Below, piece after piece: positions 14,810 to 45,863 of a DNA stretch of 64,000 nucleotides. The translations under genes and the position numbers were made by a program. Numbering within the stretch: position 1 is the stretch's first letter; each line of letters opens with the position of its first letter. The notes below the pieces were generated by a model. It had not been told where the DNA came from, made no database searches, and saw nothing but the letters and a program-made list of their open reading frames with translations. The DNA is from Gemmatimonadaceae bacterium (GTDB lineage: Bacteria > Gemmatimonadota > Gemmatimonadetes > Gemmatimonadales > Gemmatimonadaceae). The DNA lies in NCBI GenBank assembly GCA_035570055.1, contig DATMLM010000023.1, positions 5,876-69,875 on the forward strand, read 5' to 3'.

Positions 14810-16750
14810 GTGATGGGCTCACGCCAGGTTCAAGTTGCGCGTCAGGGATTTGACAGCGAATTGTTGACGCCACGTGTGCAGGACGTAGTTTGGGGGCCTA
14901 CGCCAATACTAAACGGACGATTCCGAGCCGCCTGCGCGGCAACCCTTGCGCTCATCGCAGTGCCGTTTGACCTCGGGGCGCAAGTTGTGAGCGGCACTGT
15001 ACTTTCGGCCGCGGACGGCCAACCTGTGCCGTACAGCACGATCAGCCTCGGGGACACGGCTGAGGGGCGGTTCGCCGATGTCGCCGGCCGGTTCGCCCTC
15101 GGCGCCCCGGCCACTGGCACCTATCGCCTCCGAGCCCAGCAGATAGGATTTCTGGCGCTGGATACGACGCTGAGCGCCGGCACCGGATCTCAGCACCTCG
15201 AGCTGCGACTCCAACCTCTCCCCGTTCGTCTCGCGAACGTCCCGGCCGAATCCCAGCACGGGTGCGCGGCGCCGAAGTTGGCCGGGTCGGGCGCTTCGCC
15301 CGCGGCCGCGATGATACTGGCGCAGGTGCGACAGAACGCCGAGCGGTACCGGATTCTTCTCGATCAGTACCCGTTCAATTACCGGTTGGAGGAAAGCCGG
15401 GCGGTTCTCCTCAACGTCCACACCAGGGACGAGACGGACAGCGTGATCGCGCTCGACACGGCAATGTATGACAGCCGGCAGCGGCATCAGTATGCCATCG
15501 GCGGAGTCGTCTACGAGCAGCGATCGGTGAGCGGTGGGAAGCACATGATGATGTTCATCCCGACGCTGAGCGATCTCGCCGATCCGGCGTTTGCGGACGC
15601 GCATTGCTTCGCGTATGCGGGCGATGCGGTCCACGAGTTGCGCATCGACTTTCGTCCAGCGGACGCGATCAAGGCGCCTGATGTCACCGGATCGGTCTAC
15701 CTCGACGATGCGCGGTACGTCGTCAAGCGCGCGGTCTTCAATTTGACGCACGCGGGCGCCATTGGCGGGGCGGCGGCGTATGTCAAAGTGACGACGACCT
15801 TCCGCGAGGTGGTGCCGTTCGTTCCGATGCTCGTCTCGGCGCGCACGGAGCAGCCGCTCGGGATCGTCACCTCTGGTGGTCTGCAATCGATGGGGTCTCT
15901 CGCGGCGGAAGGCGCCAAGAATCCCGGTGGATTCTCGGGCTTCTCGCCCTACTCGGATCAGCGGGTGTCCGTGCAGCAGGATCTCCTGCTCGACCACACG
16001 TTCATCGCCGACACGATTGGCTCCCAAGGTCAGGCGCACGCGCCTGGTCGAAGCGCGGGGTATGTCGTCACCGTCGCCTGCGCCATGCCCCCGTCCTTTG
16101 AGACGGCCGACGTACTCATTTACGGCACGCTCGGCGGCCCCGGTGCGTCGGACGCTCACGCCAGCGATGTGTTGGCGAAGGTCCGGCCGTTGTTCCACAT
16201 GCCGAATGAATTCGCGCTTCCCGTGTATGGTTACTCTGTCGGTTCCAAGGCTACGCAGACGTTGACCGCCCAGGTGGCGTTCATGCTCGACGCCACTGGA
16301 CACGCGACGGGTATTGCGGTGACGGCGACGTCGCTTTCGCCGTCGATCGACAGCAGCGTTGTCGACGCGATCCGCGGCGCCGATGCGGCGCACGCGTTCC
16401 GCGGGCTCAGGGCGGGGCGGTACACGTTGTCTCTCTCATCAGCCGCGCCATCGCCCGATGCGCCAGCCTCGATCCTCTTCGCGCGCCTTGCGGCCTCGGT
16501 CATGAATCTCGCCCGCACCGCGGAGCTCGATCCGGACTCGACACAACCGCGCTTGTCCGTGACTGGCCGGTTCGAGTTTGTTGTCGACGAACAAGGCCAC
16601 GCCATTCCCATGACGCTCTTCACGGCCGCGGCTTCGCCGGACGCCCTTGCCTCTGCAGCTCGAGTATTGCCTGCCTTCCGGTTCCGTCCAGCGCTCGCGG
16701 GCTCGTGCCCGGTCAAGCAGGAGGTCATGCTCACCGGGCTGCGCCAATAA
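14810..16750 (+). CDS. hypothetical secreted protein with an N-terminal carboxypeptidase-regulatory-like domain
   Basis: VVSGTVLSAADGQPVPYSTISLGDTAEGRFADVAGRFALGAPATGTYRLRAQQIGFLALDT fits a CarbopepD_reg fold. The start codon is uncertain. The large antisense ORF (14909..16393) is a GC artefact. Confidence 0.5.
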   Translation: MMGSRQVQVARQGFDSELLTPRVQDVVWGPTPILNGRFRAACAATLALIAVPFDLGAQVVSGTVLSAADGQPVPYSTISLGDTAEGRFADVAGRFALGAPATGTYRLRAQQIGFLALDTTLSAGTGSQHLELRLQPLPVRLANVPAESQHGCAAPKLAGSGASPAAAMILAQVRQNAERYRILLDQYPFNYRLEESRAVLLNVHTRDETDSVIALDTAMYDSRQRHQYAIGGVVYEQRSVSGGKHMMMFIPTLSDLADPAFADAHCFAYAGDAVHELRIDFRPADAIKAPDVTGSVYLDDARYVVKRAVFNLTHAGAIGGAAAYVKVTTTFREVVPFVPMLVSARTEQPLGIVTSGGLQSMGSLAAEGAKNPGGFSGFSPYSDQRVSVQQDLLLDHTFIADTIGSQGQAHAPGRSAGYVVTVACAMPPSFETADVLIYGTLGGPGASDAHASDVLAKVRPLFHMPNEFALPVYGYSVGSKATQTLTAQVAFMLDATGHATGIAVTATSLSPSIDSSVVDAIRGADAAHAFRGLRAGRYTLSLSSAAPSPDAPASILFARLAASVMNLARTAELDPDSTQPRLSVTGRFEFVVDEQGHAIPMTLFTAAASPDALASAARVLPAFRFRPALAGSCPVKQEVMLTGLRQ

Positions 16751-16755
16751 CCCCG

Positions 16756-17103
16756 TTGGCGCGGCTCCGCGCGATCTGCCTCAAGCTTCCCGAGGCGCAC
16801 GAGGTCAAGGCGTGGGGCGAGCCCACGTTTCGGGTGCGCAACAAGATCTTCGCGATGTACGCGTCGGCGAAGACCCATCACGGTGGCGGGCACCCGGCGG
16901 TCTGGTGCAAGGGCTCGCACATGGACCAGGAGTATCTGGTCGGCTCGAACCCGCGCCGGTTTTTCGTGCCGCCGTACGTCGGCCCCTATGGTTGGATCGG
17001 TGTTCGCCTCGATGGGAGGCCGAACTGGAAGGTCGTCACCGAGCTTTTGCGCACGGCCCACAAGCGAGCGGCGCCCAAGAAGCTCGCGGCGACGCTCCGC
17101 TAG
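16756..17103 (+). CDS. MmcQ/YjbR family DNA-binding protein
   Basis: ARLRAICLKLPEAHEVKAWGEPTFRVRNKIFAMYA ... VWCKG matches MmcQ/YjbR family motifs. A probable TTG start lies just after the upstream stop. Confidence 0.55.
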   Translation: MARLRAICLKLPEAHEVKAWGEPTFRVRNKIFAMYASAKTHHGGGHPAVWCKGSHMDQEYLVGSNPRRFFVPPYVGPYGWIGVRLDGRPNWKVVTELLRTAHKRAAPKKLAATLR

Positions 17104-17900
17104 AACGGGATCTCGTACAGGACGCGAAGCGTCTTGAGGTCGGCGTCGCTCAACTGCCACTTCTTGCCGTTCCCGGCGCTCGACATGATGTCGTCCGGGT
17201 TTGGCGAGTGGTCGAGACCGAGGGCATGACCTGCTTCGTGCAGGGCGGCGTTCTGGATACCCTCGATGGGAGCCGTGGACAGCAGCAGCACGTGCGCGAC
17301 GAGGATGCGGCCATCATTGTCGGTGAGCCGAAACGTGGTGCCGAGCTCCCCTTGGAAGGGAAGCGTCTGAGCCCACGTGACGTGTACGTCGGCCGCGGTC
17401 GAGTCGTCGACAATCACGTAGGTCACTGGAGCCTGGGCCTCGTTCCACCGGCGAAACGAGGTCCGCACAACCGACGCGTATGGATGCGCTGCGATCCAGA
17501 CGGCGACCGTATCCTTGTGGTCGGGCCAGCGCGAGATGCTGCCCGCGCCTTCGGCGATCACGCGGCGGATGTAGGTCCCGCCGGCATCCTCATCGAGGAT
17601 GGAGTCGATCCGATCTCTAGACGCTGCCGCCGGCGCGCTGTCGGTGGCGATCTGCTGCTGGGCCGCCAGCCGTAGCCGGTCGAGGTGCAGCTCGCGCAGC
17701 CAGGCCGGTGGCCCCGGATACTGGTTGCCCATGGACTGGACTTGGTTCTCGTACGCCCTGACCACTAACTCGCTGTCCGCGTGCGTCAGCTGCACCAGCG
17801 GGTGCTTCGCCGCCGCGCGCCGGTGGTTCCGTAGCGCCGCCGCGGCCACCACCAGTACGACCATCAGCACGGACACTCGAACGGCCTTCGCGACGGGCAT
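17100..17900 (-). CDS. M10 family zinc metalloprotease (matrixin/metzincin-like)
   Basis: Metzincin motif HEAGHALGLDHS (HExxHxxGxxH). Signal/anchor MPVAKAVRVSVLMVVLVVAAAAL. Confidence 0.75.
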   Translation of the reverse strand: MPVAKAVRVSVLMVVLVVAAAALRNHRRAAAKHPLVQLTHADSELVVRAYENQVQSMGNQYPGPPAWLRELHLDRLRLAAQQQIATDSAPAAASRDRIDSILDEDAGGTYIRRVIAEGAGSISRWPDHKDTVAVWIAAHPYASVVRTSFRRWNEAQAPVTYVIVDDSTAADVHVTWAQTLPFQGELGTTFRLTDNDGRILVAHVLLLSTAPIEGIQNAALHEAGHALGLDHSPNPDDIMSSAGNGKKWQLSDADLKTLRVLYEIPF

Positions 17901-17919
17901 CGTGAGGAGACGCGCGCGC

Positions 17920-17975
17920 GTGGCGCTCAGCAACGTTACTTGTTCAAGTGGCTCCGTAGAAATAACTTACGGGCT
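17920..17975. repeat. copy A of a repeated ~55-bp intergenic element (GTGGCGCTCAGCAACG + TTACTTGTTCAAGTGGCTCCGTAGAAATAACTTACGGGCT)
   Basis: The same element recurs at ~21074-21154 (copy B, upstream of a tRNA-Cys 5' half) and at ~23132-23170 (copy C, upstream of the intact tRNA-Cys). It is probably the tRNA-Cys promoter region. Confidence 0.6.
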
Positions 17976-18674
17976 CTTATGCGCGCCATTCGCTGTCTGC
18001 CGATGCTAGGAATGTTTATCACGGCGTGCAGTCACGACGCGACGGCTCCTCGGCCTTTGCCATCCGCGGCGGCGGTTGCACGCCGGCTCGACAGTCTCTA
18101 CGCACAGGCACTGGCCGCGCAGAATACCGAGGCGTACGACGTGCTTCGGTTTGCGGAGCTCGGCCCGGCATTCGGTGCGGCACCGGTCGCGGTCAGCGTC
18201 ACATACAACGGCAAGCCGGAACCGTGGATTGCGTTCGGCGCGGACCTCGTGGGTCAGGACACCTTGGGCAACAGAACGGACATCTATTTCGTCGTCGCGT
18301 CGCCCGATGCGAGCTTCGACACGATGGTGGTCGCTGAGCAATCTGACGGATTCCCTCCGCCCCCAGCTCAGACGACGGGCTATCTGTCCGTGGGCGGGGG
18401 AGAGGCATTGCCGTGGCCGGGAGTAGGGCCGGTGACAGCGAGCACACAGCAGCTTGGCGGCCCCTGCAACTTGGTCCCCGGTTTGGTTGGCTCCGATGTC
18501 ACCAAGTACAGCACTGATCCTTGTCGGTTGATGCAGATCCAAGCGAGTATGGCGCTGCGAATCGCGACGTTCGACTCCACCGATTCGGTGAGGATGCAAG
18601 TGACGGTGAACGGTGCAAGCCTGACCATCGGGCAGGACGAGGTGAATAGCGGTCAACGCATTTCGTGGCCGTAA
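17940..18674 (+). CDS. hypothetical lipoprotein
   Basis: Lipobox-like MLGMFITAC. Gly/Pro-rich with no recognisable domain. The start could be 17940 or 17979. Confidence 0.5.
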   Translation: MFKWLRRNNLRALMRAIRCLPMLGMFITACSHDATAPRPLPSAAAVARRLDSLYAQALAAQNTEAYDVLRFAELGPAFGAAPVAVSVTYNGKPEPWIAFGADLVGQDTLGNRTDIYFVVASPDASFDTMVVAEQSDGFPPPPAQTTGYLSVGGGEALPWPGVGPVTASTQQLGGPCNLVPGLVGSDVTKYSTDPCRLMQIQASMALRIATFDSTDSVRMQVTVNGASLTIGQDEVNSGQRISWP

Positions 18675-18688
18675 AGGTGCGGCCTACT

Positions 18689-19531
18689 ATGTCACGCCTC
18701 TTCGTGGTGTCGATCATCGCGTGCGGCACACTCGCCGGCGCCGAGGCGTCCGCGCAGGATTGCCACGGTGCGCCAGCGGCCGATTCCCAACTGGCCGCAA
18801 TCAACGCGCAGTTCTCGACGCCCGACGCTCGTGACAGTCTCACCACCGACGCGACTGACTCTCTTGGCGCGGCCATCAAGGCGGTGCTCAGGTTGCCGAG
18901 TCCTGTTCCGATTCCGGTGTGGATGTCAACGCCGGGGCTGGCGATCCCGTACGTCCACGGCGCCTTCGCGTTCACGATCGAGAAAGATGGGAAGGTCGGA
19001 AGCATCAAGGTCGAGCGGTCGACGCTCTCGCGCGGCCTGGACTCCGCGTTTACTAACGCGCTGGCTGCGGTGCCACCACAGATGCTCGGCCGCAAGGTCA
19101 AGCTCACGATGCTCGTGAGCCTCAACACGCACACGTCGCCGCCAGTCATGAGACAGATCACCACGCCGGGCGGCCATACGTACGATGCGGCGCATCCGCC
19201 GCCGGATAGCCTCAAGGTCGTGCCAGGCAAGCACTATGGCCCGCACACGATCAACTTGGATTCGCTCACTGTGCCGGTCTGGCCACAGCTGCCGCCGCCC
19301 AAGCTGGTCCGCCCAGGCACCGCGCCGCGCGGCTATCAGGGCATGGTCAACGCGATGGTCGTGATCGACGAGGAGGGGCGCGTGGCGAGCGTTGACGTCA
19401 TGAGCGCCAAGCAGGCGGACATGCTGGGCCCTACACGCGCGGCGCTCGCCGACATGCGAATGTCGCCGTCCTCCCTCGGCGGGTGCCCGGTGAAATTCGC
19501 GATCGTGGTCCCCGTCGTGTTCGGCGGCTGA
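18689..19531 (+). CDS. secreted protein with TonB C-terminal-like domain(s)
   Basis: Signal MSRLFVVSIIACGTLAGAEASAQD. The C-terminal GYQGMVNAMVVIDEEGRVASVDVMSAKQADMLGPTRAALADMRMSP...CPVKFAIVVPVVF resembles the TonB_C fold. An earlier segment (PVWMSTPGLAIPYVHGAFAFTIEKDGKVGSIKV) looks like a second such unit. Confidence 0.5.
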   Translation: MSRLFVVSIIACGTLAGAEASAQDCHGAPAADSQLAAINAQFSTPDARDSLTTDATDSLGAAIKAVLRLPSPVPIPVWMSTPGLAIPYVHGAFAFTIEKDGKVGSIKVERSTLSRGLDSAFTNALAAVPPQMLGRKVKLTMLVSLNTHTSPPVMRQITTPGGHTYDAAHPPPDSLKVVPGKHYGPHTINLDSLTVPVWPQLPPPKLVRPGTAPRGYQGMVNAMVVIDEEGRVASVDVMSAKQADMLGPTRAALADMRMSPSSLGGCPVKFAIVVPVVFGG

Positions 19532-19802
19532 TCCCGCCTACCGCACACGCAGACAGGCGCTAATCGTGGCTTCGAAGTCAGGTCGCCGCAGCGAGAAATC
19601 CGTGACAACGCGGGCCTCCCAGCCGAAGTAAAGCGCGACGATGGCGGTGAGCGGCCGCGATCACAGCCACGACCGCAAACCAAGCAGTTACTCACTCAGC
19701 CGTCATGTTCGACTGTGCTCCTTGGCGCGCGTACTAGACTGCGACTAGAGACAGCAGCTTGACATTAGCGTATTTTTCTTCAGGTCCCGCCCGGGAGTTT
19801 GC

Positions 19803-20042
19803 ATGCAAGAGAGTACTGCGACCAAGACAAGTGTCATCCACACTGACCCTGAGATCCAAAGCGGCACGCCGGTGTTCGTTGGTACGCGCGTGCCCGCCGC
19901 GTCGCTGTTCGACTGGCTGGAGGGCGGCTCAACGCTCGAGGAGTTCCTAGACAACTTTCCTAGTGTGACGCGCGACCAGGCGATCGCGGCGCTGGAAGAA
20001 GCAAAGGCGAGCGTGGTCGGCGGTGCGCGTCCTGCTCGATGA
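19803..20042 (+). CDS. DUF433 domain protein (antitoxin-like partner of DUF5615)
   Basis: 79 aa. IHTDPEIQSGTPVFVGTRVPAASLFDWLEGGSTLEEFLDNFPSVTRDQAIAALEEA matches the DUF433 consensus (..DPxxxxGxPxxxGTRIPVxxIxxxLxxGxSxEEILxxYPxLTxEDIxAAL). There is a good SD (GGGAG) 7 nt upstream. Confidence 0.7.
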   Translation: MQESTATKTSVIHTDPEIQSGTPVFVGTRVPAASLFDWLEGGSTLEEFLDNFPSVTRDQAIAALEEAKASVVGGARPAR

Positions 20043-20348
20043 GAACTTGCCGCGCCAGCTCGCGCGCGAGCTGGTAGGACACGACACGAAAACTGTCCCA
20101 CAGATGGGTGGGCGTCGCTAAAGAACGGAGCGCTGCTCACCGCCATGGCCCGGGCAGGATTTGACGCCCTGGTCACGATGGACAAAAACCTTCACAAGCA
20201 ACAACGAGTGGCTGATCTCCCGTTCGGCATCGTTCTGATCCGGGCACGGGACAATCAACTTGCGACTCTGTTGCCGCTAGCCCAAGACATGCTGAGCGCG
20301 CTCAAAGAGGTGCGGCAGGGTCAGGTCGTCAGTGTTGGGATCGACTGA
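20023..20348 (+). pseudogene. DUF5615 (PIN-like putative toxin) gene disrupted by a frameshift
   Basis: A GTG start overlaps the DUF433 stop by 20 nt and reads VRVLLDENLPRQLARELVGHDTKTVPQMGGRR*. The rest of the family sequence (...WASLKNGALLTAMARAGFDALVTMDKNLHKQQRVADLPFGIVLIRARDNQLATLLPLAQDMLSALKEVRQGQVVSV) is in the +2 frame. The shift falls in the G-rich run cagatgggtgggcg (~20104-20114). Confidence 0.6.
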
Positions 20349-20488
20349 CCTGCAGGACCGCTTGTGGGCTGCTACTTGCTGCCGGCGAGTCTGTAATCCC
20401 TTCTGCCATAGATGGTTGCTAGCGTCGGCCGTACCCGATAGTTTCCCGAAATGTACGGAGGTACGTGTAAACATCTATGGAGGCTTCT

Positions 20489-20617
20489 GTGTCAATCCCT
20501 CTCCCCATCTGCGACGCTTGCGGTCGGCGGACGGCGACAATCAAGCGGGACAACGTGTGGTACTGCCAGGTCTGCGATAACGGCCCGGGCGTGACGCGTC
20601 TATCTACCGGCCACTAG
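20489..20617 (+). CDS. possible small zinc-ribbon protein (42-46 aa, CxxC-x15-CxxC)
   Basis: It lies below the ORF-track size cutoff. Translation: (MEAS)VSIPLPICDACGRRTATIKRDNVWYCQVCDNGPGVTRLSTGH. GGAGG sits 5 nt upstream of the GTG at 20489. An alternative ATG is at 20477. Confidence 0.3.
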   Translation: MSIPLPICDACGRRTATIKRDNVWYCQVCDNGPGVTRLSTGH

Positions 20618-20898
20618 CGACAGCCGCCGTAGAAGCCGTCGCCTTGATAGCTCACAGCGCGGATCGTGTCCTGCTGCGTCGTGAGCGCCACCTTGCATGT
20701 GACGTTGCCGCCGCGCGTGACCTGGCGCCAGACCATGACCTTGCGTCCGTCGCTGAGATCGAACGCATCTCGGGGAGCACCCCACTTCTCGATCGCGACG
20801 TCGATGGGCTGGCCCTTCCAGCTCTCCATCTCACGGCGAAAGCCTCCGCTGCTGGCGCACGCTGCGACCAGCACGACCAGTCCTACCGCGACGCGCAT
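20614..20898 (-). CDS. small hypothetical lipoprotein
   Basis: MRVAVGLVVLVAACASSG (lipobox VAAC) + 75 aa. The longer annotated ORF up to 21087 runs through the repeat element and is unlikely to be translated. Confidence 0.45.
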   Translation of the reverse strand: MRVAVGLVVLVAACASSGGFRREMESWKGQPIDVAIEKWGAPRDAFDLSDGRKVMVWRQVTRGGNVTCKVALTTQQDTIRAVSYQGDGFYGGCR

Positions 20899-21073
20899 TC
20901 GCTCCTCAGCGATGGTTTGACAAGGGACGCGAACTCGGGTGTTGTGGCAACCTTTTTTGGCTGCAACCCTTTCGGTGGGTGCGACAGTACACCGGGGCTT
21001 AGCCACCGGACGTCTCGACGAGCCCACATGAACTCGCCGGGTCGGCGAATCCGGGCTAGGCGAAGTGCAACTC

Positions 21074-21154
21074 GTGGCGCTCAGCAACGCCGAGGCCCAC
21101 CGTTCCGTCGTCGCGTTACTTGGTCAAGTCGCTCAGTAAGAATAGCTCACGGGC
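21074..21154. repeat. copy B of the repeated intergenic element (GTGGCGCTCAGCAACG, a 26-bp insertion, TTACTTGGTCAAGTCGCTCAGTAAGAATAGCTCACGGGCT)
   Basis: The left arm is shared with copy A. The right arm plus GTTTCTG plus the tRNA 5' half is shared with copy C. Confidence 0.6.
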
Positions 21155-21161
21155 TGTTTCT

Positions 21162-21198
21162 GGCGCGGTAGCCAAGTGGTAAGGCAGCGGTCTGCAAA
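21162..21198 (+). other. truncated tRNA-Cys 5' half (37 nt; acceptor stem, D arm and anticodon stem/loop up to position 37), i.e. an att-site remnant
   Basis: GGCGCGGTAGCCAAGTGGTAAGGCAGCGGTCTGCAAA is identical to nt 1-37 of the intact tRNA-Cys at 23178. The sequence diverges immediately after the anticodon loop (TGGCTAGC instead of ACCGCTAT). Confidence 0.75.
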
Positions 21199-21353
21199 TG
21201 GCTAGCTCGAACAGGTGCCAGAGTGCACCTGAGTGCTAAGTAGGAATTCGAGTAGGCTTAGGGAGAGGGCGGTTTCCCACGGTGTCTGATGGGAGCCGCC
21301 ATGTTTCTCTCAGGGTGCCACCAATACTGCCACCGGCTCATGGAGCGCAGGCT

Positions 21354-21758
21354 ATGGCGAATGACGCGCGCATTGAGGCTCTCGTAGACGCGCAGCTCGC
21401 CCTCATCGAGGATCCTGAACGCAGGAATGCACTGGCGCGGCTGCTCGTGCCACCTCGTCACGAGGAGCGCGAATGGGACTACGGTGCCGAGGGAGAGCGC
21501 TACCCGTACTGGGTTGTTGCGGAGGCGCCCGATCGCGGCGTGATACTCGTGTATTGCGAGCACGGATTTGGTCCCGACGAGCCTTGGGGCTTCTTGTTCA
21601 CGGATGAGCCGGACTTCACGTCGCTCGGCATGGATAGTCAATGGGGCTGGTACTTGGAGGAGGCGTTCGTGCGGTCCGGCCTGTGGAAGGGCCAGACCAG
21701 CATCAGCGACGCCTTTCACAAGTCACCAGAACAGCGTTTCGGCTCGCACAAGACCTGA
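21354..21758 (+). CDS. hypothetical protein (possible immunity-like small protein) in the tRNA-flanked islet
   Basis: ~134 aa from MANDARIEALVDAQLALIEDPERRNALARLL... to ...SQWGWYLEEAFVRSGLW. No recognisable domain. The ORF could start at 21282. Confidence 0.4.
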   Translation: MANDARIEALVDAQLALIEDPERRNALARLLVPPRHEEREWDYGAEGERYPYWVVAEAPDRGVILVYCEHGFGPDEPWGFLFTDEPDFTSLGMDSQWGWYLEEAFVRSGLWKGQTSISDAFHKSPEQRFGSHKT

Positions 21759-21952
21759 GGCTCGCGAGCAGCGGACTGAAAACGCGAACTCGGTCGCGAA
21801 GTCCACGTAGCTGCCAAATTGCTTGCCTGGGCCCAGTTAGCGGAAAGGGCGATTTCTCACGGTGTACGCGAGAAGTCGCCCTTTCTTGTTATGTCTGCCC
21901 ACGGAATTGCCCTCGTTCGATAGATCGGGCATCGTCGACACGACGCGCCCCG

Positions 21953-22879
21953 TCACAGAGAATTGCCCTCAGCCGCAGTGCGGAAAGCGACGCCAGCGCG
22001 TCGTCGTGGAATTTCTCGCGCAACCAGGTTCCACCCGCGCCAGTCGTATACCGTTTGAGGCGTCGTGAACCGTGGAGTCGTCGGCCATATCAGAGACAAA
22101 TCGTACTGCTGAGCAAAGGCGTCCCCCATCGTTTGACGAGCATCTCCGACATTGTCGGGCATGCTAATCGTAAGCATGAACAGCTTGCCCATAACAAACC
22201 CAGTCGCCTGTCGGCAGACCCCACCGTTAAAGCGGGGGTCGACTATATCCCCGGGTTCATTCCACCCAACGTGGTTCATGACGCCCGACTGCACATCCGA
22301 GTATTTGCCAATCCAGACCGACCATGTCGGTGGCGCTTCCATTTTGTTGACGAACTCGAGGCGTTCCTCCTTCGAAGTCGCCTGTGTTGGAGGATGGGCA
22401 GTTTCCCGTACCATCGTGTTCATCGCGGCCCAGGTAGCCACAAGGTGTTGGCCCCGTTCGTCGAGCTGTGGCCAGTTCCCTAAAACCATCGACCGGAGAT
22501 ATTTCTTCGCTCGCTCTTGAAGGGCACTCATGCGGACGTTGTTGCAGTGTGCACAGAGCACTCGCAGTGCTTGCGAGTGGGGGTCGCCTGGACGATCGAG
22601 TTTTCCTCGGCTGAACTGGTATGGACCTAATGTGCCCGTTGAGATAGCAATGCCACGGATACTGACGGAATGACTAGTGTTCGTGAACCAGAGGCCGACA
22701 TACCGCCGCAACCAGCGCGGGTTGAGGTGCTCCTTGGTTAGCCGTCCCGCCTTTCCGCAAAACAGGCACTCATTGCGACTCGCTGACATCGCCGATCGCG
22801 AATCAGAACGCTTCAAGGCAAGTCCTCCCTCGACGGGCGCCGGCGTTGGAAACGTGAGCGGCGCGAATACGACCGACAC
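21953..22879 (-). CDS. HNH endonuclease domain protein (HNH_5-like N-terminus plus a domain of unknown function)
   Basis: CLFCGKAGRLTKEHLNPRWL .... VLCAHCNNVRMS gives CxxC...EH...CxxCN, as in HNH_5 nucleases. The probable start is the Met at 22789 (MSASRNECLFCGK). Local GC is ~55%. Confidence 0.55.
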   Translation of the reverse strand: MSVVFAPLTFPTPAPVEGGLALKRSDSRSAMSASRNECLFCGKAGRLTKEHLNPRWLRRYVGLWFTNTSHSVSIRGIAISTGTLGPYQFSRGKLDRPGDPHSQALRVLCAHCNNVRMSALQERAKKYLRSMVLGNWPQLDERGQHLVATWAAMNTMVRETAHPPTQATSKEERLEFVNKMEAPPTWSVWIGKYSDVQSGVMNHVGWNEPGDIVDPRFNGGVCRQATGFVMGKLFMLTISMPDNVGDARQTMGDAFAQQYDLSLIWPTTPRFTTPQTVYDWRGWNLVAREIPRRRAGVAFRTAAEGNSL

Positions 22880-23131
22880 CTGAAGCTTTCTAAGTTGGGT
22901 TCCCGCGTGCTGGCGAGTCGCTGAGAACAGCGGTCACGATACCCAGCATGCCGGGGGTTGGAACTGCTCAAACCTGCTCGCGTCGTCAATGCGAGTATCC
23001 GAGGGATCGGGGCAAGGCTAGAACAGCAGCCCGGGCGGAGACTGCGCGGGCAAGTATCAGGTTGGCTTAACGATGAGTGCCACCAATTTTGCCACCACTC
23101 GTCAGTACGAGAGTGTCACGCCGGTCCCGGC

Positions 23132-23170
23132 CGACTTGTTCAAGTCGCTCGCTCGAAATAGCTTACGGGC
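23132..23170. repeat. copy C of the repeated element (GACTTGTTCAAGTCGCTCGCTCGAAATAGCTTACGGGCT), immediately upstream of the intact tRNA-Cys
   Basis: ~90% identical to copies A and B over 39 nt. It is followed by the same GTTTCTG spacer as copy B. Confidence 0.6.
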
Positions 23171-23177
23171 TGTTTCT

Positions 23178-23249
23178 GGCGCGGTAGCCAAGTGGTAAGG
23201 CAGCGGTCTGCAAAACCGCTATTCGCCGGTTCGATTCCGGCCCGCGCCT
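23178..23249 (+). tRNA. tRNA-Cys (anticodon GCA)
   Basis: GGCGCGGTAGCCAAGTGGTAAGGCAGCGGTCTGCAAAACCGCTATTCGCCGGTTCGATTCCGGCCCGCGCCT. It has a 7-bp acceptor stem (GGCGCGG/CCGCGCC), an anticodon stem GCGGT/ACCGC with loop CTGCAAA (U33, G34 C35 A36, A37), a T-arm GGTTCGATTCC, and no encoded CCA. Confidence 0.85.
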
Positions 23250-23311
23250 CTCGACAACGAATGCAGACCCATACGAAGAGCACGGTGCGCGTTCTTCCTA
23301 GAGTCGACCGA

Positions 23312-23908
23312 TCAATGCCTCAACGGGTCCACTCGGTCAGCGTACGCCTCGGCCCAGGCAATCCAATCTGTGGTGGATAGACCTGGCGGAACGATTGGCA
23401 GCGGGCCGGCCGCATTTGCGACGTGATTTTCGCCGTCCGTGCTGGGGTCACGCCCGAGTTGCTTGCTAAGTTCGGCAATATAGCAACGAATCAGCCGGGA
23501 AAGTTGCCATGAATTGGCCTGCCGTTCGATCTCCTTAGCGAGGGCCGCTTCCCGAACCTGGATTCGTTGGGTTTCCGCAGCGCGGTTGGCGGCTTCGCGC
23601 TCCCGCTCGAGCTTTTGCTGCCAGTCCGCGATGACACGTCGGTACTCTGTCGCAGCGTCGACGATGCCGCCTATCACGGCGTCGAGTTGTTGCTCAAGCA
23701 AATCGCCCTGTTTCCCAGGTCGTGGATCGGACCAGATCCGGAATGTGCCCCACCCGCCCACATGATGCGGTATGGAGAGCGCGAGCCTGCCAGACGGGAT
23801 CACTTCGCGTACGCCATCGAGCGAACTCATCGAACGCCGCTGTTGTCCACGTAAGTGGGCTTCCGGCGCCGGTGTGGTTGGTTTGACCTGTTTGCGCAAC
23901 TCGCGCAT
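23312..23908 (-). CDS. hypothetical protein with a central coiled coil (second gene of a two-gene operon beside tRNA-Cys)
   Basis: 198 aa with a coiled-coil segment QQKLEREREAANRAAETQRIQVREAALAKEIERQAN. No known domain. Confidence 0.4.
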   Translation of the reverse strand: MRELRKQVKPTTPAPEAHLRGQQRRSMSSLDGVREVIPSGRLALSIPHHVGGWGTFRIWSDPRPGKQGDLLEQQLDAVIGGIVDAATEYRRVIADWQQKLEREREAANRAAETQRIQVREAALAKEIERQANSWQLSRLIRCYIAELSKQLGRDPSTDGENHVANAAGPLPIVPPGLSTTDWIAWAEAYADRVDPLRH

Positions 23909-23975
23909 CGTGAGAAGAACATCTTGATCGTCGACGTTGACACATGTGACATAGCCGTGCCATTGGGAAGGCCAC

Positions 23976-24284
23976 CTACGTCATCGGCTCAAGCTGGCCG
24001 CGCGAGTTCATCCGTGGCCGCGGCATCCGGCTCTCGACGCGATATCCTCGGTCCTCGAGCACTTTAAAAAGGGCATCGAGTATTCGGAGCGCCCGATCTC
24101 GCGTTTTGTCGGAGACCCTGAGATCGGGGTATAACGTCTCCGCTTGTCCGGTCGCGGCATGTTTTCGTCGAGACTTGACGAGAGTCACGAGAGGATGCCA
24201 CGGCTTAGCGTCATCGATATTCGCGGCAACGGCGATCGCTCCCAGACCCATCGACTCGCGTCGGGATTGAGTGGTTTTGGGCAT
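23976..24284 (-). CDS. hypothetical protein (first gene of the same two-gene operon)
   Basis: 102 aa, 67 nt upstream of the 198-aa gene on the same strand. The in-frame ORF after its stop (23694..23975) is GC-noise. Confidence 0.35.
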   Translation of the reverse strand: MPKTTQSRRESMGLGAIAVAANIDDAKPWHPLVTLVKSRRKHAATGQAETLYPDLRVSDKTRDRALRILDALFKVLEDRGYRVESRMPRPRMNSRGQLEPMT

Positions 24285-24371
24285 AGCTGTAACAATATAT
24301 AGGCACGCGAGTCAACGCTCATGAACATCGGCACCTCAACGACAGTGTTGTTCTCACCGGAGTGACGTTGG

Positions 24372-25529
24372 ATGGCAATCACATCACACCGACTGGTCGG
24401 AATTCTGGAGTTCCGGACGCTGCTAACAAATGAGCTCCACCTACGAGAACACTATGACGCGTTGTTAGCCGACTTCGCGGCAATCCCGACCGGCATGCCG
24501 ATATGGGGCCCCGCCATGTACGGCTCCTTCTCCGCGACCTCGCATTTGCGGTGGCGGTTTCAACGCTCCAATGGATCGGATGACCGGCTAGTGCAAAGCC
24601 TCTGTAGGCGCGCATTCCGTCGGCCACTGACCGAGGCGGTGTTCGTTCTGGATACGGTCTTCGTACCGGATAGCGAGACAATGGCGGAGCTTTCTCCCGA
24701 AATTGGCGAAGGCGGTCTTATCTCACTGGCGGCGAGTATGCTCGCCGATACGCTGCGGAGTCTCGTCTACGCCGCCAACATTGCTCGTCCGGCAACGCTG
24801 ACATCAGTCAGTGTTGCCGTTGCGATGGGAGACGGACGGCAGATGTTCGAGCGACACGATCTAATCGGTGACTTCGGGGCGGTCCGAGAGTACGCCACTC
24901 GGACTGGATGGCCCATCTTCGACGAGTTACCTATCCTCGATGTCTGGGTATGGACCTTGAAGAACTTCCTACCAACCCGTTGCGGCGATAGCCCGCTCTC
25001 CCGTGCATTCAACGCACACACGTACCTGTATGGTGTGGAAATTCCGACTCCCCTCAAGATGTTAGCCGCCCTGATCGGGGTGGAGGCGCTGTTTGGGGGT
25101 GGCTCGACCAATCAACTCATCGAGCGCGTTCACCTATTGCTGGGTCCGTCCAAGGACTTTAGGCGTGACCTCCGACGCATGTACGAAATCAGAAGTGCCG
25201 TTGTGCACGGATCAGCGGGATTTCCTCCACACTTATTCCCATATGCTGACCCCCCTGCATACGCCGGGCGCCGACGAGAGACTGACAAGGCGGCCGACGT
25301 TGGCTCAGCGATTTTGCTTGCCGCGCTTCAACGTTGCGCCAAGGTTGGCGCTAGCCGTCTCGAATACGAGGAGCACCTGACTCATCACACGGAGGACTAC
25401 GATCAGGAGCGCTCGGACGAGATAGGGACGAATTTTGTGCGCTACAGACTATCGGATGTCCAGGCCTACGAGACGGGCGTAAGGCGCGCCATGCGGCAAC
25501 GGTCACGGAAGACCGCGTCGCGAGGTTGA
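24372..25529 (+). CDS. HEPN domain protein (Apea-like / abortive-infection-like)
   Basis: 385 aa. The C-terminal block NQLIERVHLLLGPSKDFRRDLRRMYEIRSAVVHGS contains the HEPN R-x4-H motif (RSAVVH) in Apea-like context. The N-terminal ~250 aa are uncharacterised. It is divergent from the two-gene operon. Confidence 0.55.
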   Translation: MAITSHRLVGILEFRTLLTNELHLREHYDALLADFAAIPTGMPIWGPAMYGSFSATSHLRWRFQRSNGSDDRLVQSLCRRAFRRPLTEAVFVLDTVFVPDSETMAELSPEIGEGGLISLAASMLADTLRSLVYAANIARPATLTSVSVAVAMGDGRQMFERHDLIGDFGAVREYATRTGWPIFDELPILDVWVWTLKNFLPTRCGDSPLSRAFNAHTYLYGVEIPTPLKMLAALIGVEALFGGGSTNQLIERVHLLLGPSKDFRRDLRRMYEIRSAVVHGSAGFPPHLFPYADPPAYAGRRRETDKAADVGSAILLAALQRCAKVGASRLEYEEHLTHHTEDYDQERSDEIGTNFVRYRLSDVQAYETGVRRAMRQRSRKTASRG

Positions 25530-25547
25530 TCTCGACGCTCGTGAGCC

Positions 25548-25823
25548 TCAACGGGGTTGGTCCTTGTCGAGGCCCGCCGCTGCGGTCGCAAGGAATTGGT
25601 TGATCGACGTGCCATGCCGTTCGGCGAGCGCCGTTATGCGCTCGACGTCGGTATCGACAGGCGGATTCCCCGAGAATCTGTCGCGCGATCTTTTGCATTC
25701 GGGTAGAGTTTCACTGGGTGTAGCGCGTAGGATGTCATGAGACCCGGTCCGGCGCACCAGAGTTGATCGTGTGCCCATCGTCGCTACGTTCGATGACCAA
25801 GTGGCCGGCGTTCGAATGCACAC
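25548..25823 (-). CDS. small protein with a C-terminal ribbon-helix-helix/HicB-like antitoxin segment
   Basis: VERITALAERHGTSINQFLATAAAG resembles RHH antitoxin C-termini (..LAEREGVSLNQLIxTALA). A GTG start is at 25823. A shorter product could begin at MGTRST (25778). Confidence 0.35.
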   Translation of the reverse strand: MCIRTPATWSSNVATMGTRSTLVRRTGSHDILRATPSETLPECKRSRDRFSGNPPVDTDVERITALAERHGTSINQFLATAAAGLDKDQPR

Positions 25824-26153
25824 GAATGCCGAGTCCAGAAAGAACGAGCGCCCACTCTTCGGGTTATTGGCTTCGGCCGGCGCTAAAGTTTCTCGGCTGA
25901 GTCAAGCATTCGGCAGAGCAAATCTGAAAGGCGATCCCAGGGACCTGGCCAGCCAATATCTGGGTATGAAAACGGCTGCTAGTCTTCTTCTCCGACGCTT
26001 TGACTGGACTTTTCCTCTGAGTTGGCAGACGCATCCCGATTGATCAGCGAGGATGCAGTCGTCGTCTCCTTGAAAACCCAATCCGGTACGAGCGCCGCCG
26101 CCCTTTGCACCATAGTCCAAATGGATTGGAGATGGAGGGCTGAGCCAAGAGCC

Positions 26154-27746
26154 TCACCGCTTTGCGGCATCAATTACCTCCCTAATCTTGTCGAGATCGC
26201 GAGCGGCCAATGATTCACGGACCAAGTAGTCGAACGGCGAGAAAGGAACGCGTAGACCGATCCCCTCCTTCTTCGTCGCACCCTTGTCGTCTTTTGCTTC
26301 AAGTCTTTTACCCAAGACACTAAGCCTTCCAAAAAATTCTGTGAATCGGCTTGGTGCGATTCCGAAGAAGGTGTCAAACGCGACTCGATCATCTTGGTCC
26401 GAAGCTGGTCCTTCTTCACTTGTCACTCTGATACTGTCCTTGTGCATCTCCGGGGCCAAACTCTTCGGATACGGCTCAATGTACACTACTCGGCGAATGC
26501 CCGCTGCGACGATGTGTTTCGCGCATCCATGACATGGGAAAGTTGTAGAAAAGAGCGTTGCTCCTCTGACGGAGACACCGACCCGAGCAGCCGACGAGAG
26601 AGCTTCCATCTCCGCGTGAACAGCGCGCGTGAACTCCGTCAGGCTCGCGATTCGGGTCTCTTTTAGTCTCTCAACCGCGACCTCTGTCAGCCGAGCTTGT
26701 TGTGTTTGATCCATTCCACCCCAATCGGGGAGAAAGACTTCCAGCATTTCAGCCACGATTTTGTGCTTCATCCTATCGCTCTCGTCATACCCGATGACAA
26801 TATCGCGAGCGTCGCGAGGCGTTCCGTCCGGATGAGGCTCATCGCCCCAATACAAACCGCCAGGCCAGCACGGCACCTCATTTGTCCCTAGCGCCAGGGT
26901 CTCGCTAAATTCGCTGACAATCGAGGCGCCCACTTGGCGAGCCAAGGATGAAGAGCGTAGGCTAGCCGCGTAGGCGAGAAACATTCCATGTTCGTCTCGT
27001 GTCGGAGTCTCTAGCTTCGTTCCAAAGACGAGGTTCAGAAAGCGTTCAATCTGACGATTCGTACGATCTTCTTCCTGCGCACTTTCGACTGCAAAAAACG
27101 CATCAGCGAGATGGAACGTGTCGTTAACCCGCTGGCCGTGCTTCACTGCTTCGTCGGCATCACGATCTATGAGTTGGTCGGCTTGCTCGCCACTCATTCC
27201 GAACGCTTTCAGATTAGCACGGCGCGTCGGCTTCGGAGCAGCCACACCTAACAAGAGAAAATTCCTGCCGTAAATGCTGCGCAGGCGAAATGCTTCCTCC
27301 GGGTGCTTGAGCTGGTCAACAACGAACACAACCTTCGAAAGGTGCCGTGGCTCGGACGCTGGGCGCTCCGCACTCATCTGCGCTGCAGCGAAGAGTGCCA
27401 AAATATCGTTGCGGTACGAATCACCACGAAGCTTTGTTCCCAAGGTCATCAACGTGTCGTACCGTTCGAAATTGGGCAGCGAGAAGATCCCCCCTGACCC
27501 GGCTGCGTAGGCTGCTAGTCTGCTCAGTTTAATCGCTACAACGCCGTACTCACGTTTCTTCAAGGCTTGAGTCAAGAGCGCTACGAAATGCGGGATTGGA
27601 GTACCTATCGGCGAAACGAGCCCGATCACCAGCTCCGGCTGTGTCGGGTAGAAAACAGTATCCAAAGACGCTATCGACGGCTTTGTTTCCTGCGCTGGAG
27701 ACGACTCGCGCTTCACCTTGGGTCTCTTGCGACGGCGTCTCTGCAC
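26154..27746 (-). CDS. AvcD-like antiphage deaminase: N-terminal degenerate P-loop NTPase-like domain plus a C-terminal dCMP/dCTP deaminase (cytidine deaminase-fold zinc) domain
   Basis: 530 aa. Zinc motif VHAEMEAL(x27)PCHGCAKHIVAAGIRRVVYIEPYPKS, i.e. HAE...PCxxCAKxIxxAGI as in dCMP deaminases. The catalytic Glu is at residue 379. There is a degenerate Walker-A-like GLVSPIGT at residues 42-49. Local GC is ~52-55%. Size and domain order match the AvcD / defensive dCTP deaminase family. Confidence 0.65.
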   Translation of the reverse strand: MQRRRRKRPKVKRESSPAQETKPSIASLDTVFYPTQPELVIGLVSPIGTPIPHFVALLTQALKKREYGVVAIKLSRLAAYAAGSGGIFSLPNFERYDTLMTLGTKLRGDSYRNDILALFAAAQMSAERPASEPRHLSKVVFVVDQLKHPEEAFRLRSIYGRNFLLLGVAAPKPTRRANLKAFGMSGEQADQLIDRDADEAVKHGQRVNDTFHLADAFFAVESAQEEDRTNRQIERFLNLVFGTKLETPTRDEHGMFLAYAASLRSSSLARQVGASIVSEFSETLALGTNEVPCWPGGLYWGDEPHPDGTPRDARDIVIGYDESDRMKHKIVAEMLEVFLPDWGGMDQTQQARLTEVAVERLKETRIASLTEFTRAVHAEMEALSSAARVGVSVRGATLFSTTFPCHGCAKHIVAAGIRRVVYIEPYPKSLAPEMHKDSIRVTSEEGPASDQDDRVAFDTFFGIAPSRFTEFFGRLSVLGKRLEAKDDKGATKKEGIGLRVPFSPFDYLVRESLAARDLDKIREVIDAAKR

Positions 27747-27781
27747 CGTGCCTCAGAATCGGCAGGAAGGAAAGAAGACAA

Positions 27782-27834
27782 ACGGACGGGACAATTCTGC
27801 CGTGTCGACCGCAAATACGAAAGCCCCCGTCCGT
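27782..27834. promoter_or_regulatory. perfect 9-bp inverted repeat ACGGACGGG-(35 nt)-CCCGTCCGT, 36 bp upstream of the AvcD-like start, inside a 650-bp noncoding leader
   Basis: Seen directly in the sequence. It is not followed by a U-tract on either strand, so it is not an intrinsic terminator. Confidence 0.4.
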
Positions 27835-28394
27835 CCCTCGCAGTATCCGGGTGCACGCATAGGGAAAATGGCCTATGCGATCTGTAAATGCGCAGTCGCG
27901 TCGGCTCCACTACATCGGGTATGACACTAGTTGTGGACGGTTCGATGATGCTACGAACGGAACGACCTAGAGGTGCTACGAAGGGTTTTTCCAAACAGAG
28001 CGTCTTCATGCGCCTATAGCTATCCGGTGCCGTCAGCCGAGCGTCAGCGGCCGAGCCGCTGAATTGTGCCGGCCTTTAGATCACCACACCGCCGGTCACT
28101 CTGCAACTGGGGCATTTCTCGGGTAGAAGGTCACTCCCTACGAATATGCTAGCGCCCGAGGAGCAAGCACCACAGCCTCGAGCTCACGTACGACAATAGC
28201 CGCGCCAAGCGCGCCGGCTTCTACATCGATCCCGGCAGTGCCAGCGGTGACGTCACCTCGTTCTGGTTCAACGAGTATCGGTTCATTCGCGTGCCCTGAT
28301 TATCGGACGCAATGGTCGAGTGCGCTCGCGATTTGTGTGTCTTTATTTTTCCGTCCATGCTTAGGAGAACGAAAACGACCGAGGAGAACTACCA

Positions 28395-45641: not shown

Positions 45642-45863
45642 TGGCACTCCCTCAATCTGGCGATACGTTCGGCGGCCGGACTGGCGTAGCGTCCACATGA
45701 ACGCCGTAGCCTCCAGAGCTTTGCGTCCCCGCCTTTCAGCGGGTCTGCCATTGTCGCGAGCACCCCAGGAGGGACCCTCGACGCCTGTTTCGTGCGATTG
45801 CTCTTACAATCTACCATCGCGGCAGAGGTCGACAAGCGGACAGTATGTCGCTTTCTTGTTGTT

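Follow-up and report, generated by a model that had tools for sequence, protein, structure and literature searches.

Probable remnant of an integrative element with a mirrored attachment-site layout at a tRNA-Cys gene of a Gemmatimonadaceae bacterium

The duplicated tRNA-Cys 5′ half and the islet between its copies

We analyzed a stretch of 64,000 nucleotides (hereafter, the window) from a Gemmatimonadaceae bacterium (GenBank assembly GCA_035570055.1, contig DATMLM010000023.1, positions 5,876 to 69,875), in which part of a tRNA-Cys gene is present twice, on either side of a 2-kb islet. The sole tRNA gene of the window, tRNA-Cys(GCA), lies on the forward strand at 23178-23250 and was identified by both ARAGORN and Rfam (RF00005, 70.8 bits). 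Positions 21118-21198 and 23134-23214 form an ungapped direct repeat in which 74 of 81 nucleotides are identical (91%). All seven mismatches fall within the upstream 44 nt, and the last 48 nt, comprising a leader (GGGCTGTTTCT) and tRNA nucleotides 1-37, are the same in both copies. The right copy runs on into the intact tRNA-Cys. The left copy ends in a truncated 5′ half (21162-21198, forward strand), an exact 37-mer match to 23178-23214 that includes the whole anticodon loop. It breaks off after ...GGTCTGCAAA (...CTGCAAA), which is linear nucleotide 37 or canonical position 38, the final base of the 7-nt loop. This 37-mer occurs exactly twice in the window, against an expectation of zero from 100 shuffles, while the 3′ half of the tRNA has no second copy anywhere in the 64 kb. 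The initial annotation of this DNA had described an 84-bp block of about 90% identity that reaches into the tRNA body and stops exactly after anticodon-loop position 37. We confirm the repeat, its identity, its extension into the tRNA and its break point; its length, however, is 81 nt, because 21115-21117 and 23131-23133 do not match.

The upstream part of the repeat is a predicted sigma-70-type promoter with -35 and -10 elements separated by a 17-nt spacer. The hexamers are TTGGTC (21120-21125) and TAGCTC (21143-21148) in the left copy, and TTGTTC (23136-23141) and TAGCTT (23159-23164) in the right copy. The corresponding pattern CTTGnn-17-TAnnTT is found ~13 nt before the mature 5′ end of tRNA-Cys across ~110 Gemmatimonadaceae tRNA-Cys loci. 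A generic promoter scan made no call on the right copy, the hexamers of which lie under the threshold of the scan. The left promoter belongs to a native-type region (21074-21161, forward strand) that opens with a flank, GTGGCGCTCAGCAACG, and a 26-nt segment and continues through the -35 and -10 elements into the leader. This region is 85-89% homologous to the flank-tRNA-Cys junction of related loci (designated by L numbers), one of them lacking an insertion (L134) and four carrying one (L132, L141, L126 and L127); the 26-nt segment is known from the native flanks of all five. The right promoter and leader (23134-23177, forward strand), which now precede the intact tRNA, are 100% identical over 117 nt to the copy borne by the element in L138 and 99% identical to that in L129, so that we predict them to be element-borne.

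The islet itself occupies 21199-23214 and has a GC content of 57-61%, compared with ~67% for the genome. Both of its ends are shared with sister elements, over ~140 nt on the left and ~145 nt on the right. The conserved left end (21199-21340, forward strand; putative P′ arm) shares 75-90% identity with the DNA immediately inside the break of L132, L138, L127, L135, L126, L141, L139 and L076. It contains a small inverted repeat (CAGGTGC/GCACCTG, 21212-21231), a terminator-like, GC-rich hairpin with an 11-bp stem (21267-21300) and a T-rich tail (21301-21311), and two direct repeats spaced 12 nt apart, TGCCACCA (21316-21323) and TGCCACCG (21328-21335). The hairpin is kept in ten sequences, and probably stops read-through from the native promoter that lies orphaned just outside it. 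The fold of the whole transcript, taken as the truncated half plus the left end, was no better than those of shuffled sequences (z = -1.1).

At the opposite end, the right arm (23072-23133, forward strand; putative P arm) holds TGCCACCA twice (23078-23085 and 23090-23097), followed by TCACGCCGGTCCCGGCCG. These repeats come directly after an integrase stop codon, and the segment GATGAGTGCCACCAaTTTTGCCACCACTC is nearly identical in L149, L150 and L138. Analogous pairs stand 3′ of the integrase stop codon in L132, L131, L076, L146 and L148, and distant members of the same integrase family have TACCCACA pairs at this position. Within the 64 kb, the pattern TGCC[AC][AC]C-N5-TGCC[AC][AC]C is confined to 21316-21334 and 23078-23096. 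Of the strict pairs, TGCCACC with 12-nt spacing, that at the left end follows the core at a distance of 118 nt and that at the right end precedes it by 130 nt. Five elements can be compared from one end to the other, and in four of them the repeat variant, GCCACC or GCCCAC, matches between the two ends: it is GCCACC in the window and L138 and GCCCAC in L132 and L076. The fifth, L127, combines GCCACC at its right end with a mixed pair at its left end. Where one end only is visible, the left end reads GCCACC in L126 and GCCCAC in L135, L139 and L141, and the right end reads GCCCAC in L131. We infer that a lambda-like (heterobivalent) integrase binds the direct repeats as its arm-type sites, and that the element's attachment site, attP, would span ~270 bp, consisting of the P arm, promoter, leader, tRNA nucleotides 1-37 and P′ arm.

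Between the ends lie two plausible open reading frames (ORFs), which are convergent and separated by a further copy of the hairpin. The first (21354-21758, forward strand) encodes 134 aa and has no family match; the second (21953-22816, reverse strand) encodes 287 aa, or 308 aa from an upstream GTG at 22879, with an N-terminal CxxC...EH...CxxCN motif. The intervening segment (21803-21919, forward strand) resembles a second left end. It has a hairpin with a stem at 21843-21885, formed by an inverted repeat that is 89% complementary, followed by TGCCCAC..TGCCC, and it matches the distal left-end region of L141, L076, L135, L139 and L126 at 74-80%. The window has two occurrences of the hairpin motif, and the islet contains both. 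The segment could be a terminator acting in both directions, or else an incomplete second left end. Given the hairpin, the TGCCCAC..TGCCC pair and the left-end match, it is possible that the islet is the collapsed remnant of two tandem elements.

Directly before the right-arm repeats lies the remnant of a tyrosine integrase gene (22990-23070, forward strand), comprising its last 26 codons and a TAA stop codon (...TAARAETARASIRLA). It was detected only by right-end DNA homology and codon-level comparison. The DNA at 22990-23254 is 94% identical to the right end of L138, and 22990-23070 can be aligned with the 3′-terminal part of the integrase genes of L149/L150, which are intact and encode 407 aa. 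In frame, the remnant stops at the TAA at 23068-23070, and its peptide agrees with the C-terminus of P0092, the integrase of L149/L150, at 13 of 17 residues; P0092 ends in ...AAARAELARASIRLA, and the related E132 integrase ends in ...EGARASVRLA. This homology indicates that the gene has been deleted except for its last 26 codons. The E132 integrase and 120 family members, used as tblastn queries against the 64-kb window, gave no match; the remnant is the only integrase sequence next to the attachment site, and no family member lies elsewhere in the window. We therefore classify the islet as a remnant and not as a functional member of its family. An absence of any integrase from the islet, as first annotated, is correct for an intact gene and overlooks both this 26-codon 3′ remnant and the two preserved pairs of arm repeats.

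Occupied sites, empty sites and the integrase family in relatives

To place the locus among its relatives, we used two scans. A scan for the 37-mer in one genome per species returned at least 119 loci, nearly all from Gemmatimonadota, and a metagenome scan for the clade-specific leader plus 5′ half returned 18 contigs. In all, 16 further truncated copies with unrelated cargo were found, nine in species-representative genomes (seven with the exact 37-mer and two slightly diverged) and seven on metagenome contigs. All 16 break after ...GCAAA. In every case with both copies on one contig, the truncated copy lies upstream of the intact tRNA-Cys, at a distance of 1.2 to 20 kb in the species-representative loci. 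The sequence inside the break is of two types. Type A (GGCT...GAGAGTGCACCTGAGTGCTAAGTAG) occurs in the window, twice in L076 and on the seven metagenome contigs (L132, L138, L127, L135, L126, L141 and L139), whereas type B (TTC...) occurs in L016, L027, L045 (twice), L058 and L117. A candidate in L060 (7394-7459) is ambiguous, since its similarity of ~84% extends over ~68 nt and takes in the whole tRNA. This copy could be a complete tRNA in decay and not a cleanly cut 5′ half, and we kept it outside the firm count.

Three of the metagenome contigs contain elements that can be followed end to end, with lengths of 8.3 kb (L132), 5.7 kb (L138) and 3.7 kb (L127). They share one anatomy and differ in cargo. 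From left to right, the host flank gives way to the native promoter and the truncated 5′ half, after which come the conserved left end, variable cargo and the right end; another promoter and 5′ half, continuous with the tRNA 3′ half, close the series. The right ends of L138 and L127 are ~90% identical to window positions 22990-23133. The left junction is alike in L135, L126 and L141, that of L139 lies inside a longer array, and L076 and L043 are also occupied. Downstream of the elements in L132 and L127 follow PRC-barrel and MFS genes, which have their window counterparts at 28.3-30.2 kb. Elements are arranged in tandem arrays in L076, L139 and L045. The junction seen in L027, where an integrase 3′ end, a 5′ half and a left end follow one another, is attP-like and typical of the internal junction of such an array. 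Three elements of subtype A1, those of the window, L138 and L127, keep their ends and have no intact integrase.

The initial annotation had proposed looking for the uninterrupted locus in related genomes, with the prospect that a truncated copy in relatives without the islet would point to a stable pseudo-tRNA. Three contigs, L128, L133 and L134, represent such empty sites. Each has a counterpart of window 16750-17919, at 84-95% identity, and after it the promoter and an intact tRNA-Cys; the position is thus taken by an intact gene and not by a pseudo-tRNA. Together, the empty and occupied sites give the presence/absence pattern expected of site-specific insertion. Another candidate for the uninterrupted locus, the syntenic relative L104, proved misleading, as it matches the flank of the right copy and is probably a deletion derivative itself.

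Intact sister elements encode an Xis-like protein and a tyrosine integrase of 407-420 aa that is directed at the tRNA. In L132, a 420-aa integrase ORF reads toward the tRNA and ends 64 nt before the element promoter. The integrase of L131 is 88% identical and takes the same place, and that of L009 is 49% identical; L129 and L142 have partial or frameshifted copies, and L138, L043, L099 and L136 have fragments only. The E132 integrase matches PF00589 (5e-24), Phage_int_SAM_1 and phrog_1 (2e-52), and by eye shows TGMRIGE, HDLRH, LGH and MRY at the usual places of the catalytic residues. NCBIfam models for Xer and integron integrases remained under their cut-offs for the L132-type integrase. P0092 is an intact integrase of 407 aa (PF00589, 1.7e-19). 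In L149/L150 it follows an HTH_17 Xis-like gene and is itself followed by GATGAGTGCCACCAtTTTTGCCACCACTC, the promoter and tRNA-Cys, and the repeats 3′ of its gene are essentially identical to window 23072-23100. The Xis-like helix-turn-helix (HTH) gene directly abuts int in L146, L149 and L150. In all intact elements, as in the window, a sigma-70-like -35/-10 pair with a 17-nt spacer stands between the integrase stop codon and the tRNA; in the intact elements this promoter comes directly after the integrase and the arm repeats.

The integrase family comprises at least 729 clusters, mostly from Gemmatimonadota. Of seven family loci with readable DNA, six (L132, L131, L009, L146, L148 and L149/L150) have the integrase directly upstream of the tRNA and directed at it, and in the seventh, L147, tRNA-Cys lies 3.4 kb downstream. 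The targets are tRNA-Cys and tRNA-Phe: a spacer of 109 nt separates P0097 from the tRNA-Phe downstream of it, and a spacer of the same length lies between P0200 and the tRNA-Cys that follows; both spacers contain repeat pairs and a promoter. The family appears to use the mirrored layout systematically. A second, unrelated integrase lineage, that of the type-B elements (PF00589 fragment), has the same layout. In L044, visual inspection of a 413-aa ORF that lies upstream of the tRNA suggests integrase-like motifs, but the ORF has no Pfam match and was not counted. The element of P0097, a family member with 68% identity, also encodes a relaxase and a MobC/NikA-like protein (L146, 3410-7408), from which we consider it a probably mobilisable integrative element; on the other side of the tRNA, L146 has a second integrase and type IV secretion genes.

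Insertion model and competing explanations

On these comparative grounds, we consider it very likely that the islet is the decayed remnant of a small element inserted by a heterobivalent tyrosine integrase into the anticodon loop of tRNA-Cys(GCA), in a mirror-image layout. In the intact element, the right end would be ordered as Xis-like HTH gene, int, two arm-type repeats, sigma-70 promoter, leader and tRNA nucleotides 1-37. With this order, attP would include the half of the tRNA next to the promoter. The chromosomal tRNA-Cys and attP would exchange strands within the 7-nt loop CTGCAAA, placing the crossover inside the anticodon loop. The native promoter and native 5′ half would thereby be stranded as attL (21074-21198), and the truncated copy would be the displaced native half. 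The promoter and 5′ half of the element would be fused to the native 3′ half as attR (23134-23250), so that nucleotides 1-37 of the present tRNA derive from the element and nucleotides 38-73 are native. The tRNA would stay intact and be transcribed from the promoter supplied by the element. In this arrangement, the 3′ end of int faces the core as usual, and only the orientation relative to the tRNA is mirrored. After integration, nearly the whole integrase gene and probably other genes would have been deleted, an order of decay that we propose from the remaining sequence, leaving the present two cargo ORFs between intact attachment-site arms. The islet is not self-mobile; a P0092-like integrase acting in trans might at best mobilise it.

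This interpretation retains the central proposal of the initial annotation, an anticodon-loop footprint of a tyrosine-integrase element, which gains support from the empty sites, the single break point in 16 copies, the conserved ends and the intact sister elements. The annotation had offered two sources for the duplicated 5′ half. An attP with the promoter-proximal half is what the order of int, arm repeats, promoter and tRNA 5′ half in L132, L131 and L149/L150 indicates. A second rearrangement is not needed to explain the duplication, although later deletions did hit the locus.

Several observations weigh against this interpretation. The evidence is all comparative, and for this subtype we saw neither an excision product nor a circular form or an attP junction. 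The contigs with empty sites come from other strains or species (84-95% identity) and not from the same population, and most sequences are metagenome-assembled genomes or metagenome contigs, in which an occasional chimeric assembly is possible. Covariation support for the left-end hairpin is modest, and the arm-type role of the direct repeats is inferred. In addition, L104 shares 18 nt upstream of its promoter with the right copy and not with the left. The promoter copies are consequently mosaic, and native and element-borne sequence do not separate cleanly at single-base resolution; the mosaic cores suggest gene conversion among copies. We nevertheless assign the right copy to the element, because of its identity to L138, the integrase remnant and arm repeats that precede it, and the native-type flank on the left copy.

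The arrangement upstream of the islet also speaks against a simple insertion. In the window, in contrast to sister loci, other DNA separates the left copy from the host flank, and the assumption that it directly adjoins host DNA proved wrong here. Homology to the host flank stops at 17978, within a third, stranded promoter copy (17920-17978), and an extra 3.1 kb (17979-21073) then separates this copy from the left promoter. The third copy carries the native flank GTGGCGCTCAGCAACG and stands where L128, L133 and L134 have the promoter and the intact tRNA-Cys. It abuts, essentially without a leader, the ATG (17979) of a lipoprotein ORF, which is followed in the 3.1-kb module by a TonB_C gene (18665-19531), a DUF433 gene (19803-20042) and small ORFs. 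At 21074 the left copy then begins anew with GTGGCGCTCAGCAACG and the 26-nt segment. Parts of the module recur in relatives: in L104, right-arm-like sequence and the tRNA come directly after the TonB_C stop codon, and in L139 a truncated promoter is followed by a 29-nt TonB_C fragment. Two histories fit these data. The promoters could be old paralogs, with repeated loss of the module in relatives by recombination between them, or the module could have been inserted together with a duplication of the promoter.

The same arrangement leads to a different reading of the locus, in which the truncated copy is also, or instead, the right junction of an older element (17979-21198), making the locus a two-member array and the left promoter element-borne. 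The stranded promoter at the place where relatives carry promoter and tRNA-Cys is consistent with this reading, as are the GC content below the genome mean at 19.6-21.1 kb, the resemblance of the left promoter core to element-type promoters (L104 and subtype A2), and the tandem arrays of relatives. However, 17979-21073 contains no arm-repeat pair, left-end hairpin or integrase remnant, the stranded promoter is not followed by a truncated 5′ half, and the left promoter is preceded by 44 nt with homology to a native flank that abuts host DNA in L132, L141, L126, L134 and L127. We regard an older element to the left as unlikely.

Decay is central to the preferred reading, that of a remnant inserted at 21199-23214, and a second alternative departs from it on this point. 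Here, the islet would be a cis-mobilisable (CIME-like) element with functional attL and attR, excised and transferred when P0092-type Int and Xis are provided in trans. The core and both arm-repeat pairs are indeed intact, the right-arm repeats are nearly identical to those beside the intact L149/L150 integrase, several subtype-A1 elements retain their ends without an intact integrase, and the tandem arrays would be a substrate for accretion and mobilisation. On the other hand, the 64-kb window encodes no integrase of the family and no excised form was seen, the conserved ends may reflect recent decay, and the internal partial left end suggests deletions, maybe of accessory sites that would be needed. 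Taken together, these points make a functional cis-mobilisable element quite unlikely.

Finally, a duplication without site-specific recombination, either by an ancestral tandem duplication of promoter and tRNA-Cys, with later decay of the first copy and acquisition of cargo, or by homing of an HNH endonuclease or a group I intron into the anticodon loop, is scarcely credible: the larger ORF has a weak HNH-like motif and bacterial tRNA group I introns are located in the anticodon loop, but the intact tRNA is contiguous and unsplit with a full second 5′ half after the insert, Rfam finds no intron in the window and reports only the tRNA and a distant riboswitch, islet-less relatives have a single intact gene, homologs of the 287-aa ORF do not lie beside tRNAs, and one break point recurs with unrelated cargo and always with conserved ends and an integrase or its remnant.

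Relation to known systems, cargo and neighbouring genes

Integration that uses the 5′-distal part of a tRNA gene has been described in PMC6563490 as "considerably less frequent", with reference to Zhao & Williams 2002 (J Bacteriol 184:859) and a few archaeal cases. To this extent, the initial annotation was right to call a duplicated 5′ half unusual: such integration is rare but documented. Like the element of the islet, elements in this reversed target gene orientation replace the 5′ part of the tRNA, displace the 5′ fragment to a position upstream of the intact gene, and integrate by a tyrosine integrase. An element that replaces the 5′ part must also supply the transcription signals of the tRNA. 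The islet differs in being a decayed remnant, and its family shows a recognisable sigma-70-like promoter within attP, a conserved terminator-like hairpin inside attL and tandem arrays with defence-type cargo. A symmetry hypothesis for tRNA-targeting integration is discussed in PMC7192596. In the searchable literature, we found no description of this reversed layout in Gemmatimonadota.

The islet family also shares much with classical anticodon-loop islands and prophages. Both target the dyad-symmetric anticodon stem-loop with an identity block that ends at the loop, both have the int 3′ end toward the core and a lambda-like attP with putative arm repeats on both sides, and both have an Xis-like HTH gene upstream of int. 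The islet family is, in contrast, mirrored, with an attP that includes the promoter and nucleotides 1-37 instead of nucleotides 32-76. Williams reportedly distinguished, in 2002, sublocation classes of tRNA integration that include crossover in the anticodon loop. Traces of the classical orientation are present at tRNA-Cys as well. [quoted passage not shown] The presence of classical 3′ fragments at the same tRNA-Cys indicates that both integration orientations use one dyad-symmetric site.

CIMEs are cis-mobilisable elements flanked by attachment sites and devoid of recombination genes, exemplified by the ICESt1/ICESt3 family of Streptococcus thermophilus. Like them, the islet has attachment-site flanks, no functional integrase and a site that integrase-bearing relatives use, and tandem accretion is seen in its relatives. 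The islet differs in its visible integrase remnant, which makes it demonstrably a deletion derivative, and its mobilisation in trans is hypothetical. A further comparison is with the defence islands found at tRNA hot spots, which resemble the cargo of the sister elements and the dCTP deaminase gene that lies downstream of the tRNA in the window. The islet differs from such islands, as both of its ORFs match no known defence family in PADLOC.

The islet is thus a decayed member of a rare but known 5′-distal variant, and what reaches beyond this single case is the behaviour of its integrase family, the apparently systematic mirrored layout of which is of somewhat more interest than the islet itself. 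For the locus, the insertion model would account for a puzzling pseudo-tRNA and a 2-kb islet as a remnant bounded by attachment sites, and would place an essential-looking tRNA-Cys behind a predicted foreign promoter. For the wider group, 5′-distal integration has been deemed a rarity, yet a family abundant in soil Gemmatimonadota appears to use it at tRNA-Cys and tRNA-Phe and forms tandem arrays with anti-phage defence genes. These loci form a clean natural data set on the question of how the orientation of recombination is determined at a dyad-symmetric anticodon stem-loop. Island finders and tRNA annotators that assume 3′ fragments would miss such elements or misplace their bounds.

A more far-reaching proposal is that the family is a clade dedicated to the reversed orientation, with a promoter-leader-5′-half attP, that its integrase-less derivatives are mobile in trans and that the orphaned module is perhaps functional. 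We hold this combination to be improbable and advance it as speculation. If it were true, each element would have an orphaned strong tRNA promoter and 5′ half at its entry. This module might yield an abundant RNA resembling a 5′ tRNA half, or might drive the first cargo gene past a regulated terminator and so link the expression of defence cargo to the activity of the tRNA promoter.

The cargo of the islet gives few hints of function. For the 134-aa ORF, searches of Pfam, NCBIfam, PHROGs and PADLOC gave no match. Its homologs form 83 clusters, the majority from Gemmatimonadota. The ORF lies beside the left end at the same position in L138 and L143; it is present in L139 too, and also in chromosomal contexts outside elements (L144/L145). 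The 287-aa ORF is identical to P0001 and has only 7 clusters among 5.8 billion proteins. Homologs with 67% identity lie beside toxin-antitoxin pairs with no tRNA nearby. The initial annotation had labelled this product an HNH_5-domain protein and had suggested searching for the same gene next to tRNA-Cys. We could not substantiate the label, as the ORF has no Pfam match at E<=10, NCBIfam and PADLOC return nothing, and hhalign against a genuine HNH_5 protein gives a probability of 2%. Among PHROGs, the best match is to phrog_38451, of unknown function (4.7e-9), and the HNH families are marginal (E=0.015 and 0.09). An AlphaFold2 model built from 7 sequences reached a predicted local distance difference test (pLDDT) score of 57.5, and a Foldseek search with it against the PDB gave no fold match, with template-modelling (TM) scores of only ~0.12. 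An HNH-like assignment, suggested by the CxxC...EH...CxxCN motif seen by eye, is therefore weakly supported. Because homologs of the gene do not stand next to tRNA-Cys, it fails as a marker of the element, and we regard it as interchangeable cargo. The sister elements carry genes for a dCTP deaminase, Mrr-nSTAND3, an OLD-family ATPase and a RelA/SpoT-like protein, as well as HNH, FRG and IrrE-type peptidase genes, the last with an HTH protein, so that their cargo appears to be typically defence-related.

Near the type-B truncated tRNA-Cys copies of three species (L016, L049 together with L027, and L045), we observed a gene for an AcrB-like RND efflux pump of 1040 aa with 95-99% DNA identity, while the only matching flank between two of these loci is ~85% identical. 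This difference suggests that the pump gene was recently transferred horizontally on or beside such elements.

Directly downstream of the intact tRNA-Cys, the window contains a low-GC island of ~5 kb (23251-28270). It encodes a dCTP deaminase, an anti-phage defence gene, on the reverse strand at 26154-27746 (PADLOC dCTPase, 5.5e-146), along with three ORFs of 198, 102 and 385 aa that have no assignment. The sister 5′-type elements L132, L127 and L126 have an internal cargo gene ~70% similar to this dCTP deaminase gene. Between 23251 and 28270 there is neither an integrase nor a 3′ tRNA fragment, and no 3′ fragment that could bound the island rises above the shuffled background. Sequence in common with L138 and L132 resumes at ~28272. 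Further away, the reverse strand carries a c-di-GMP-I riboswitch aptamer at 45668-45759 (Rfam RF01051, 65.4 bits).

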